Origin: Adineta vaga
Lineage: Eukaryota > Animalia > Rotifera
Reading direction: 5' to 3'
NCBI GenBank assembly: GCA_021613535.1
Contig: CP075496.1
Location: forward strand, 11,284,001 to 11,348,000
Length of the DNA: 64,000 bases
Each line of letters begins with the position of its first letter. The stretch's first letter is position 1. The position numbers and the translations under genes are program-made. This document shows positions 14,881-21,786 of the stretch, one piece after another. The notes under the pieces are model-generated. The model did no database searches. It was not told where the DNA came from and saw nothing but the letters and a program-made list of their open reading frames with translations.

Positions 14881-16730
14881 ATGAGTATCGATTTAACGAA
14901 TGTTATACAGGTATTGTTGGATGATTATCACTGTATAAGTTTTAGTTTTGTTCTATTTGTACAGAAAGGTACACATTTTGCTGAGCAAGCTACTTTAGAA
15001 GATCAAAAACATAACTACGAAGTAGCTGCTGGACATTACATGGCTGCAGCTGACTGGTTTATACACGCAACTAAATGTAAGTATTTCACATGTGCATTTA
15101 AATTTACAAATTTGTTTCATTCTTAGATGGAACTATGAACGATGAAACAAAAAAACGTTTACGTGCTAAAGTTGCGACGTATTTGAAGAGAGCAGAAGAA
15201 ATTAAGAATATTTCGAACAAAAAACCATCAGGACGGGAAACTGTGCCCAATAACCACGGAGGTAATGAACGTTCTAAAACTCGTCAAGATTGTGATGAAG
15301 ATAATGATGATCCAGATAAAAGACGCATGATGCAAAAATTTGAAGGTTAGTTTCACTTTATTTTTTCTCCTCCTGTAACTGACAGCATCTTTTTGAAAAC
15401 TATAGGTGCGATTATTACAAATCCAGAAGTTACATTTGATAATGTCGTCGGTTTGGATCAGGCTAAAAATGCATTGAAAGAAGCCGTCATTCTACCAGTT
15501 AAATATCCAAAACTCTTTCGAGGCAAATGTAAACCGTGGGCTGGTATTCTTCTCTATGGAGTATGTCATTCATTTTTCATATCGTTTTGTTCTCATCTCT
15601 TCTCTTATTCATTTCTAGCCTCCTGGTACTGGAAAATCATATCTTGCTAAAGCCATTGCTACCGAATGTAAAAGTACTTTCATCTCAGTTAGTTCATCGG
15701 ACATTCTTACCAAATGGCTTGGTGACAGTGAGAAAGGTGTCAAATGTTTATTTGAACTTGCTCGAAAACGACAACCATGTATTGTATTCATCGATGAAAT
15801 CGATGCTCTTTGTGGGCAACGTGATGGCTCAGGATCTGAAGCATCATCACGTGTTATTACTGAATTTCTTGTTCAAATGCAAGGTATGTTGTTTTTTTCT
15901 CATCGGAATGAAACATAGATGAAAATGAGTGTTGTTGTTTGTTTTTTGTCAGGTGTTGGAACTGATAATTCGGGTGTACTTGTACTTGGTGCAACAAACA
16001 TTCCATGGTCACTCGATACAGCTATTCGAAGACGGTATGTTTTTAGCGTGTAAAGAATCATGTGAGGTCGATAGTTGATCTGATGTTATTATAGATTTGA
16101 GAAGCGAATCTATATTCCACTTCCTGGTGTGAATGAACGTGCAGCAATGTTTAAAACTCATTTGGGTACAAATACATATCATACAATCAAAGATAATGAA
16201 TGGATGCAACTAGCACAACGAGCTGAACAGTTAAGTGAGAGAAGTATGAAAGATTGAAGATGATAATGCTGATTTATTGTGATAGTTATTCTGGTGCTGA
16301 TATTGGTGTAGTTTGTCGTGAAGCATTACTCAGACCTATTCGACGGATAAGTTCAGCGACTCATTTTAAGCAAGTTAGTATGAATCAATGTATTTCTTCG
16401 GTCATATGTTTAACTTGTTTTATATAGGTACCAAATCTCAATAGAAATGCTGACGAGCCGACTCATCTCTGGTTTGCTTGTTCACCTGGAGACACAAATG
16501 CAAAATCACTTACGTTGGAAAAAATAGATCCTGATGAACTAGGTGATCCACCCGTATCTATGGTAAGTCATTAAGAAAGAATACGTAATTAAATTATCAT
16601 TTGTAATATCTATATATTATTCCAGTCGGACATGTCGGCTGCTCTTTCGACACAAAAGGCAACAGTAGGTGTAAAAGATTTGATAAAATATGAACAATTT
16701 ACAGAAGAATTTGGTCAAGAAGGTTCATAA
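14881..16730 (+). CDS. VPS4: VPS4-family AAA ATPase, paralog A (catalytic motifs intact, altered pore loops)
   Basis: MIT domain, GPPGTGKS, FIDEID, AIRRRFEKRIY, beta-domain ACSPGD, C-terminal FGQEGS*. Confidence 0.93.
15521..16345 (+). repeat. Near-identical ~825-bp tract shared with 20576-21398 (VPS4 A vs C), including four introns
   Basis: Direct comparison: two introns identical and two with only 1-3 differences; flanking exons and introns are diverged. Confidence 0.9.
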
Positions 16731-17273
16731 AGAAGTTATACTCTACTCAAACTATTCATACAATCAACGATATTCAATTTATCTTGTCACTATCCTTTTC
16801 AATGTTTTCTTTTGAAATGATTGCGTGTACTTTTTTCTTATTATTGATTCTTGTTGTTTACAGTAGTCACAACACGAATTGAGTTTATTTTTCAATAAAA
16901 CCAAGACATTAACTACTCTTATTTTATAACGATTTGTAAAATCATCTTGTTTTAGAATATTCATTGATAGTATTACGTAATCTTATTCTATCGTTTCTAT
17001 TCTTCGTCGCAGCATATTCAATATTACACTAGTGAACAATTATACTCTATTTTACAACTGAAATAGGTAAGTTCAAGGTAAATGATATCTTCTATATCTT
17101 TGTGTAATACAGCATGTCATATATAAAAGATATATTATTCATACGTTTTCTCGCGTATTCTTATCTTTTACAACGTATTCATCATTGTTTTTACATATTA
17201 GAAAAGAATCTGAGCGAGTATAGTTTGTTTATTATATCCTATTGATATACTCTTGTTTGTAACTAGCAAAGCA

Positions 17274-19147: not shown

Positions 19148-19867
19148 AATAGAATTGAATTCTTATCGTTGTATAATTATAATGAATTCTTCATCAATAG
19201 AAACACTTTTTTTTGCTTCATCATTGTCTTCTATTTGTTTCTTGTTCGTCTGTAAAATGAATAGACATCTAACAAAAGAATTGTTTTGTATCAAAATAAA
19301 TCTCGAAACAATTACTTGATAGTTAAAATTTGTTCTCATTGTTCGTTTTTTTCTCTTCATATAGCTGCTCCTGACATCTGAAGGAATGATTAATAGATAT
19401 TGTCATTGAATGATAAGAAAGGAAAAAGAAAATTTCATATGATAAGAAATTTTTTTGAAAATTCTGTTGTATTTATTTTTTCGAATCATATTTATATGAA
19501 TAATTTTAATCATTGTCATTTGACTTGAGTGAAAAATTTTTCTATTCGACTGTTGTCGTTAGACAGATGAATTCACTTTTTTTCAATCGAGATTGTGATG
19601 AGTCATCTCTTATTCTTCTATACTCTCTCGATTCGACTCGATCATACGTATTTATAGGAATAAACAATATTTTATGTTTTCTGTTATTATTTTTAGGAAT
19701 ATTTTATCTGACTATATTGAGTTCATTCACTAATATTCATATTTTTTAAATTTCCTTCTAGATATGAGCTTAACTTTATCCAATTGTGTCTATCCATAAT
19801 CTTATTTATTAGATATATTTTCTGTAGTTCTGAGTTATTATTATTATTATTATTATTAATAAAAACA

Positions 19868-21786
19868 ATGAGTAGTGGTCAAAGTGATTATATTCAAGTA
19901 ATAATTCATGAAATATCTGTTCAATGTAGAAACTTATTTTCATCTTTTGCAGAAAGGTATTCGAAGCGCTGAACAAGCTACAGCTGAAGATAAAGCACAT
20001 AATTATGAAGCAGCTGCACAACATTATATGACTGCAGCAGATTGGCTTATGCAAGCAATGAAATGTTAGTGAATAATGATGAGTTTTATGTGATATGTTA
20101 TGTACTAATTTTTTCTAGATGGAGCTATGAATGCACAAATGAAACAAACGATACGACCGAAAATTGAAAGTTATGTGAAACGAGCAGAAGAAATCAAAGA
20201 CATTTTAAAGAAAGGTTCATCAAAAAAGAAAGCTGTTGCTGATACTTCTAATGGACGTGGAAATTCTAAAGATAATAAAGGAGATGATGATGACAATGGA
20301 GATCCAGATAAAAGACGCATGATGCAAAAATTTGAAGGTAGATTTTAGAAAATCAATACAAATTCATCGCAAACATGTAATTGTTAAACTATGTTTATAG
20401 GAGCTATCGTTACTGATCCAAAAATCACTTTTGCAGATGTTGTTGGATTAGATCAAGCGAAAGAAGCATTAAAAGAAGCTGTTATTTTACCAGTTAAATT
20501 CCCACAACTTTTCCAAGGTATATCTTTTATAAGAAATTTAATATTATCTCATTCATTCATTCATTATCTCTCATTAGGCAAACGTAAACCGTGGGCTGGT
20601 ATTCTTCTCTATGGAGTATGTCATTCATTTTTCATATCGTTTTGTTCTCATCTCTTCTCTTATTCATTTCTAGCCTCCTGGTACTGGAAAATCATATCTT
20701 GCTAAAGCCATTGCTACCGAATGTAAAAGTACTTTCATCTCAGTTAGTTCATCGGATCTTCTTTCCAAATGGCTTGGTGAAAGTGAGAAAGGTGTCAAAT
20801 GTTTGTTTGAACTTGCTCGAGCAAGACAACCATGTATTGTGTTCATCGATGAAATCGATGCTCTTTGTGGACAACGAAGTGACACTGAATCAGAATCATC
20901 AAGACGTGTTAAAACTGAATTTCTTGTTCAAATGCAAGGTATGTTGTTTTTTCTCATCGGAATGACACATAGATGAAAATGAGTGTTATTGTTTGTTTTT
21001 TGTCAGGTGTTGGAACAGATAATTCAGGTGTGCTTGTACTTGCTGCAACAAACATCCCTTGGGCACTTGATACAGCTATTCGAAGACGGTATGTTTTTAG
21101 CGTGTAAAGAATCATGTGAGGTCGATAGTTGATCTGATGTTATTATAGATTTGAGAAGCGAATCTATATTCCACTTCCTGGTGTGAATGAACGTGCAGCA
21201 ATGTTTAAAACTCATTTGGGTACAAACACATATCATACAATCAAAGATAATGAATGGATGCAACTAGCACAACGAGCTGAACAGTAAGTGAGAGAAGTAT
21301 GAAAGATTGAAGATGATAATGCTGATTTATTGTGATAGTTATTCTGGTGCTGATATTGGTGTAGTTTGTCGTGAAGCATTACTCAGACCTATTCGACGAC
21401 TTGGCAGTGCAACTCACTTTAAACAAGTAGGTTTCTCTTTGATGAATGTTGTTTTTCTTAAATGATTGTTCGTATTTCATCTAGGTACCAAATACACAAC
21501 CTGACGGACCTCGAATGGTTTGGCTAGCCTGTTCACCTGGTGATTCAGGGGCTCAACCGATGACATTAGATCAAATCAAACCTGAAGAATTATGCGAGCC
21601 ACCTGTTAGTGTGGTGCGTAATCATGAAAATCTAGAGAAAAAAAAATTAATAATACGAAAAGAATTTTTTAATCATTTTAGGGTGATATGATAGCAGCTC
21701 TTGCGACGCAAAAGCCGACAGTAGCTGAAGTTGATTTAGCATTACAGAAAAAGTTCACAGAAGAATTCGGCCAAGAAGGTTCGTAA
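19868..21786 (+). CDS. VPS4: VPS4 AAA ATPase, paralog C (canonical)
   Basis: MIT domain ([19 protein letters not shown]), [62 protein letters not shown]. Confidence 0.95.

Follow-up and report, generated by a model that had tools for sequence, protein, structure and literature searches.

Tandem VPS4 Genes in Adineta vaga

The window analyzed here is a stretch of 64,000 nucleotides from the bdelloid rotifer Adineta vaga (assembly GCA_021613535.1, contig CP075496.1, positions 11,284,001 to 11,348,000 of the forward strand), with a G+C content of ∼30% and introns of 50 to 70 bases. Three genes for the membrane-remodeling motor VPS4, labeled A, B, and C, lie in tandem on its plus strand. We focused on a tract in which A and C are nearly identical, introns included, and on a stretch around the substrate pore, inside that tract, in which they differ. 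The three gene models, in positions of the window, are as follows.

14881..16730 (+): VPS4 A; 10 exons, 441 amino acids; MIT, AAA, and Vps4_C domains; GT-AG introns and an open frame
17274..19148 (+): VPS4 B; 11 exons, 411 amino acids; open frame, 10 GT-AG introns; predicted pseudo-ATPase (least certain junction, intron 3 at 17663-17816)
19868..21786 (+): VPS4 C; 11 exons, 439 amino acids; GT-AG introns; conserved, canonical-type copy

Both A and C have the domain composition that defines VPS4, with an N-terminal MIT domain, a single AAA cassette, a beta domain, and Vps4_C. Pfam matches of their exons (A and C, respectively) were found for MIT (1e-6 and 5e-9), AAA (2e-27 and 3e-28), and Vps4_C (3e-6 and 2e-8), while the MIT exon of B had no Pfam match. 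The best solved-structure matches of a C ortholog are VPS4B (E value of 2e-151) and yeast Vps4 (8e-137). The Walker A lysine, the Walker B DE pair, the sensor 1 asparagine, two arginine fingers, and the lysine-aromatic-hydrophobic-glycine motif of pore loop 1 are all kept in A and in C, and the catalytic residues of A are intact in all 7 of the species with an A copy.

The C protein is fully identical to A. vaga I4U23_020772, and residues 1 to 439 of A form the start of I4U23_020771, in which A and B have been run together. The locus exposes the fusion of tandem genes in public gene models, which at VPS4 clusters are often over-long (698 to 826 amino acids): I4U23_020771 (P0002) joins A and B, P0001 joins two VPS4 copies, and P0313, P0323, and P0350 are likely fusions, judged by length. 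A second tandem pair, I4U23_000885/886, labeled D and E, is located on another contig, so that A. vaga has at least five VPS4 genes in two tandem clusters, compared with one in yeast and two largely redundant copies in mammals (PMC7618577). Unlike in yeast and mammals, one A. vaga copy is altered at otherwise invariant pore positions and another is predicted to be catalytically impaired. The metagenome contig L001 carries an ortholog of C, and the region downstream of C is also common to both. A small proline/lysine-rich tandem-repeat gene without a Pfam match lies there (22368-23100, minus strand) and is kept in L001 at 1690-2500.

Probable Gene Conversion between A and C

The features on which the comparison of A and C is based are as follows.

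15521..16345 (+): near-identical tract attributed to conversion, A copy; codons 160 to 351, from the P-loop to the small helical subdomain
20576..21398 (+): the same tract, C copy; partner of A 15521-16345
20518..20577 (+): intron in C that is absent from A; B and the D-type gene of metagenome contig L037 have it at the identical site
15309..15347 (+): second identical A/C block, 39 bases, at the end of the linker exon; partner 20301-20339

An earlier reading of the letters alone (the original prediction) had described 15521-16345 and 20576-21398 as near-identical, including four introns, between diverged MIT and 3′ parts. That description and its coordinates proved correct. Identity extends over 788 of 825 aligned columns, with 2 gaps, and the longest exact runs are 173, 158, and 114 bases. 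The four tract introns are identical at 58/58, 66/68 (plus 1 indel), 60/60, and 55/55 (plus 1 indel) positions, which amounts to 2 substitutions and 2 one-base indels in 243 bases (∼98% alike), versus 28/54, 22/50, 24/60, 31/53, and 33/63 (40 to 59%) for the five introns of A outside the tract. The synonymous p-distance (pS) is 0.109 in the tract and 0.581 outside it. The P-loop and the small helical subdomain are the same in both copies; outside the tract, 35 of 80 MIT residues and 20 of 28 linker residues differ. A bounded tract far more alike than its flanks, neutral sites included, is what interlocus conversion leaves behind, and we regard gene conversion between A and C as nearly certain. 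A recent duplication of the core was considered and rejected, the flanks being collinear, saturated, and orthologous across genera. B has no exact block of more than 15 bases in common with A or C. One of the two tract indels is an extra T in A at the splice donor of a tract intron (16230-16236), where the GT is retained.

The 5′ edge of the tract coincides exactly with the position of the intron that A is without, and the missing intron likely set this boundary by halting conversion tracts. The 39-base block, the sole exact A/C block of at least 14 bases outside the tract, is likely a separate small conversion. The direction of conversion is not readable from the DNA, as the introns of L001 are equidistant from A and C. 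The exon comparison with L001 covered codons 173 to 351.

The tract might instead be an artifact of assembly or polishing that copied C into A or the reverse. Contigs L001, L002, and L037 all break in or near this region, which is evidently hard to assemble. However, reads cross-map only where sequences are already alike, a degree of likeness that the introns outside the tract do not approach, and no exact run exceeds 173 bases. The residual differences are also orderly and common to A. steineri, and the grouping of A with the C copy of its own species recurs in the records of other species. We therefore judge an artifact to be very improbable.

Protein trees of 34 rows were reconstructed by region. 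Bdelloid classes were assigned from N-terminal similarity, trees, and accession order, with the middle-gene class of Rotaria inferred from accession order and a B-like C terminus. Fragments below 395 amino acids, fused models, extra alleles, unplaced extra Rotaria paralogs, and unnamed metagenome proteins (bar two outgroups) were excluded. Evidence from the relatives is at the protein level, the DNA being that of A. vaga and metagenome fragments, and comes from gene models of public assemblies, some of them possibly chimeric, although chimeras arise only between near-identical copies. In the N-terminus tree, eight A rows cluster with two Adineta B rows (97/99), and the A rows also cluster together in the C-terminus tree (85 in a quick tree). 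In the tract-flank tree, the A and C copies of A. vaga are placed together (99/79), as are those of A. ricciae (95/84), and a single cluster (90/94) holds all seven rows from R. magnacalcarata and R. socialis, which comprise A, B, and C. Flank differences between A and its own C number 1/99 in A. vaga and 3/99 in A. ricciae, against means of 7.3 and 8.7 to the C copies of other species. Grouping by species within the tract and by orthology outside it was found in 4 of 7 species. In R. socialis, 2 of 4 A sequences have a C-type patch at 318-321, and one also has a wholly C-type C terminus. Recurrent conversion, as had been predicted, is well supported by these protein trees, and it would have occurred in several bdelloid lineages.

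A metagenome scan found 3 of 80 loci to be bdelloid-like (L001, L002, and L037), with an A copy in none of the three. Contig L037 carries an E-type and then a D-type gene in 1-2542, and the Walker B sequence at which it starts is also the one at which it ends. It looks as if the assembler had broken off at a repeat common to D and E, a hint that the second cluster has undergone conversion as well; residues 161 to 280 are the same in A. vaga D and A. vaga E.

Divergence around the Pore and Its Interpretation

Within the tract, the differences between A and C are concentrated in one stretch, whose parts in A are listed here.

15702..16014 (+): divergent stretch in A, codons 200 to 281, within the tract
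15702-15726 (+): flanks of pore loop 1 in A, from the list of A/C differences
15816-15858 (+): pore loop 2 and helix in A, from the same list
15963-16014 (+): sensor 1 exon in A, from the same list

Synonymous differences (C numbering) number 0/31 in codons 160 to 199, 14.5/59 in codons 200 to 281, and 1/52 in codons 282 to 351. Codons 200 to 281 (pS, 0.246; nonsynonymous p-distance [pN], 0.088) hold 13 of the 14 amino acid differences in the tract, and the intron in the middle of this stretch (15884-15952) is identical at 66 of 68 positions (Fisher P of 0.0007 to 0.0015 versus the synonymous sites of the stretch). Over the whole tract, introns differ less than synonymous sites do (Fisher P of 1.3e-5). 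The observation that introns more alike than exons run counter to neutral expectation was already part of the original prediction, and simulations bear it out. A run was counted as a match with at most 4 intron and at least 12 synonymous differences, among runs with 25 to 50 differences. Neutral models at equilibrium matched in 12 of 3,921 runs (5/263 in the worst setting) and nonequilibrium models in 94 of 34,015; a relaxed A with purging in C only matched in 14 of 1,424 and mismatch-barrier models in 2 of 1,000. With three or five protected A sites, 73/345 and 61/337 runs matched. Match rates are 0.3 to 1% for neutral or one-way models versus 18 to 21% with selection, a ratio of ∼20 that is an upper guide, because the models are simple and the protected sites were picked from the data, which favors the selection model. 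By both the Fisher tests and the simulations, this peak of divergence, in which synonymous changes are linked to it while the neutral sites around have been converted, exceeds neutral expectation, and selection has probably kept A different near the pore.

This signature is a known process, opsin-type conversion with selection, in a new case. In the red and green opsins, introns more alike than exons and a peak of divergence at functional residues have been attributed to selection against conversion (PMC3924837), under the divergence-peak model of Teshima and Innan (2008) cited there. Like the primate opsins, A and C are old tandem duplicates with homogenized introns and a divergence peak at functional residues. 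Unlike the opsins, for which the effect is measured and the sites are common across species, the VPS4 A residues occur in 2 of 7 species and are known from sequence, and the VPS4 tract is sharply bounded and spans a portion of the gene. For the Drosophila transporter pair CG18281/CG17637, Osada and Innan in 2008 also described paralog-specific sites that cluster amid species-specific converted ones (PMC2588116); that study used orthologous DNA, whereas in VPS4 both site classes are present at the protein level. No report of a bdelloid VPS4 expansion, a VPS4 pseudoenzyme, or VPS4 conversion was found among the matches listed, a search with most subscription papers outside its scope. Although the evolutionary signature is a textbook one, it marks individual residues in an enzyme that otherwise hardly varies.

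The pore loops were delimited by the yeast definition (PMC5413351) as positions 203 to 210 and 240 to 251, or 20 of the 192 tract positions; a yeast Vps4 residue carries the number of the C residue plus 1 (K204-W205-L206-G207 corresponds to yeast K205, W206, M207, and G208). These 20 positions carry 8 of the 14 amino acid differences, with 1.5 expected. The peptide pairs quoted in the original prediction for pore loop 1, pore loop 2, and the vicinity of sensor 1 translate as given, and two further differences, A222K and R162C (C numbering), lie outside them. Seven of the 14 changes in A (R162C, L201I, S203T, E208D, E244G, R249S, and K252I) fall at sites that are invariant in 69 nonbdelloid VPS4 and 16 bdelloid C and D rows, and six of these seven are also altered in another Adineta A. 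The enrichment at pore-loop positions (P of 7e-6 in A. vaga; 8/33 and P of 0.009 in A. steineri, values that are too small since the changes cluster) is absent from the D/E pairs (0/10, 1/23, and 1/28). Compared with the ortholog in L001, pN in the stretch is 0.024 for C and 0.083 for A.

A. steineri A is altered at five of the seven invariant positions; all 5 of its sequences carry the A. vaga A residues at 201 and 244, and position 252 is V. D208 and G273 are common to A. vaga A and A. ricciae A. In all, four of the A. vaga A-specific residues occur in A. steineri, two in A. ricciae, and at most one in each Rotaria species. The divergent-stretch tree pairs A. vaga A with A. steineri A (97/90), and both protein ends pair it with A. 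ricciae A. L201I, E244G, and K252I/V probably predate the split of A. vaga and A. steineri. With A. vaga and A. ricciae as the closer pair, the A motif would be old and lost in A. ricciae. Some of the A changes at the seven invariant positions appear to be protected from overwriting. Beyond these, the pore loop 1 triad has changed from K to R in the A copies of R. magnacalcarata, R. socialis, and 2 of 3 A. ricciae sequences, from W to Y in that of Rotaria sp. Silwood1, and from L to V in that of A. steineri. At the protein level, the pore is a recurrent site of change in A, yet there is no single conserved A pore; conservation of A-specific pore residues in relatives, on which the original prediction had made itself depend, was seen only in A. 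steineri, one of the six other species with an A copy, and the motif is missing from the A copies of A. ricciae and the four Rotaria species. The S/A change at position 280 near sensor 1, proposed as an A feature, was rejected as an A signature, as it varies among C orthologs too.

We somewhat favor the following account: A and C are old tandem paralogs between which conversion likely copies patches, selection likely spares a few pore-side residues of A, and A would be a retuned motor, not a duplicate of C. Short nonallelic conversion between copies 5 kb apart would erase neutral A/C differences, perhaps during break repair, as has been proposed for the homogenization of allelic pairs in bdelloids (PMC3464624). 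Unlike in allelic or collinear conversion, A and C are nonallelic and otherwise saturated at synonymous sites. Judging from its relatives, C stays canonical, which suggests that patches bringing A residues into C are purged; patches overwriting some of the A residues would likely be purged from A. Around pore loop 2, A has lost one acidic residue and two basic ones, a change that, to judge from the structure papers, would affect pore charge, grip, or ATPase coupling but not sequence specificity. Whether A works as a retuned VPS4 motor we consider an even question.

Several observations weigh against this account, in addition to the choice of protected sites in the simulations. The motif K204-W205-L206-G207 is identical in A and C, and of the six residues nearest to the peptide in the yeast structure, only E245 (E244 in C) differs, being G in A. 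There is no pore-loop enrichment in A. ricciae (5/26; P of 0.11) or in the four Rotaria species (P of 0.36 to 0.84). The changes in A. ricciae A are others, with E244, R249, and K252 retained; 2 of 5 A. steineri A sequences have other residues at 243, 245, and 247; and in the stretch, R. magnacalcarata A departs from its own C at just 3 of 94 residues. Recent flank conversion was not found in A. steineri, Rotaria sp. Silwood1, or Rotaria sp. Silwood2 (9 to 11 of 99 residues differ from their own C), whose A rows stay together in the flank tree (93/75). Two of the four trees have unsettled bootstraps, and one is the quick tree. Finally, A-, B-, or E-type proteins account for 0 of 12 transcript-sized metagenome or assembly proteins, a weak hint that A, B, and E are rarely expressed. 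The prediction of a different gripping pore is not supported in that form; selection that keeps A different near the pore finds some support.

These points also bear on a rival in which conversion is real and A is under relaxed selection, so that its pore changes drift and are purged only when they enter C, and clusters of mismatches shield themselves. Its long branches, substitutions that vary by lineage and are nearly absent in R. magnacalcarata, and the lack of A-type proteins among the 12 just mentioned all fit a relaxed A, and the neighboring B shows that copies at this locus can lose catalytic residues. However, the intron in the middle of the stretch has been converted and the synonymous sites flanking it have not, and both one-way purging and a mismatch barrier matched rarely in the simulations above. 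The catalytic residues of A are intact in every species, and the same altered residues persist in A. steineri. Relaxation of A is an unlikely explanation, and selective retention of the A residues is preferred.

If clients differ between A and C, the main source would be the MIT and beta domains, which were not converted and lie outside the tract. MIT domains bind the tails of ESCRT-III proteins (PMC7618577), and client choice therefore more plausibly follows MIT; the VPS4 beta domain binds Vta1 (PMC6393862). In yeast, the pore loop 2 residues E245, S246, and E247 lie near the peptide without distinctive contacts, and the pockets tolerate a wide range of residues (PMC5716660 and PMC6393862). 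In a primed VPS4B hexamer, according to a preprint, the MIT-AAA linker lies against both pore loops (PMC13484431), and with 20 of 28 linker residues differing between A and C, coadaptation of linker and pore is possible. The yeast structures leave the roles of pore loop 2 and its helix loosely defined, and the natural variants E245G, R250S, and K253I (yeast numbering) could serve to probe them.

Paralog B, the VPS4 System, and Other Features of the Window

B lacks residues that mark an active VPS4, namely, the Walker B glutamate (E to N), the arginine fingers (RR to Q/K), and the pore loop 1 aromatic (W lost), in line with the prediction of a dead paralog. Five sequences of A. steineri B, whose accessions lie between those of the A and C copies of that species, have other lesions: Walker B E to D, RR to RK at the second finger, and sensor 1 N to T. 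The two B proteins are identical at 211 of 404 residues and have 49 residues in common that occur in neither species' A or C (tree support, 91 to 99), and B versus C shows a pN of 0.35, below a near-saturated pS of 0.585. Judged from these sequences, two Adineta species have kept B, a predicted pseudo-ATPase. No B was seen among the A. ricciae VPS4 proteins examined, and the middle gene of R. magnacalcarata and R. socialis largely resembles C and has its catalytic motifs intact. A homolog search with B exons returned only the A. vaga record among 93 matches, and a search of representatives with the ATPase part of B returned no distinct B cluster in the best 150; such blanks are misleading, as the B orthologs surfaced only as members of a C cluster. 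A copy in Rotaria sp. Silwood2 (P0135 and P0510) has Walker B E to N, a serine in place of the second arginine finger, and a C-like N terminus and is possibly an independent pseudo-ATPase.

No match for expression of A, B, or C was found in the part of the supplementary data of PMC10809525 (one small file) and PMC11258130 that was covered. The expression table of PMC12220480 has, among the matches listed, one VPS4 model (baseMean of 609). The block of that model includes GalNAc-transferase, TOM20, and OTU neighbors, as in the window, without SART-1 or ARF, and it was therefore taken as a duplicated sister block at a different locus.

The original prediction went on to a complete model in which conversion is favored for the coassembly of A and C, the A pore grips special ESCRT-III clients, and mixed hexamers are built from all three copies. 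It can draw on the sameness of the P-loop and small helical subdomain in A and C, on the open frame of B and its A. steineri ortholog with the 49 B-only residues, and on a reported interaction of human VPS4A and VPS4B (PMC8374858), a source that leaves the extent of interaction unresolved. However, conversion needs no benefit to occur, so its proposed role as keeper of compatibility does not follow from the tract; the tolerant yeast pockets and the noncommittal pore loop 2 (PMC5716660), with recruitment by MIT domains, speak against pore-based ESCRT-III clients as stated; and B is limited in its distribution as described above. The whole of this model seems improbable to us. Its three components A, B, and C are present in A. 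vaga, but the count of three is overtaken by the D/E pair and by the C-like middle gene of the two Rotaria species. It is similarly doubtful that Adineta has a modular VPS4, with a canonical C, a pore-retuned A kept assembly compatible by conversion, and a conserved dead B, combined in mixed hexamers. If true, an animal VPS4 would carry its own pseudo-ATPase regulator and have tunable speed and grip, possibly serving membrane repair after desiccation.

Elsewhere in the window, two tandem ARF-family genes at 30718-32837 (minus strand), with exons ∼70 to 78% alike and no conversion-like tract, offer a local contrast to the VPS4 pair. Upstream of A, at ∼12400-13900, a region of higher G+C (0.38 in 12001-14000) with open reading frames without a Pfam match gives the impression of a transposon remnant, and an inverted repeat at 24157-24538, just upstream of the SART-1 gene, with 117-base arms that are 85% complementary and 148 bases apart, is possibly a small nonautonomous transposon. 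ARAGORN found no tRNA in the window. Two tandem B-box/coiled-coil open reading frames at 39983-41746 (plus strand) encode proteins 26 to 31% alike, and a cytochrome P450 gene at 50337-51890 (minus strand) is a single open frame of 517 codons, unusual beside its intron-rich neighbors.

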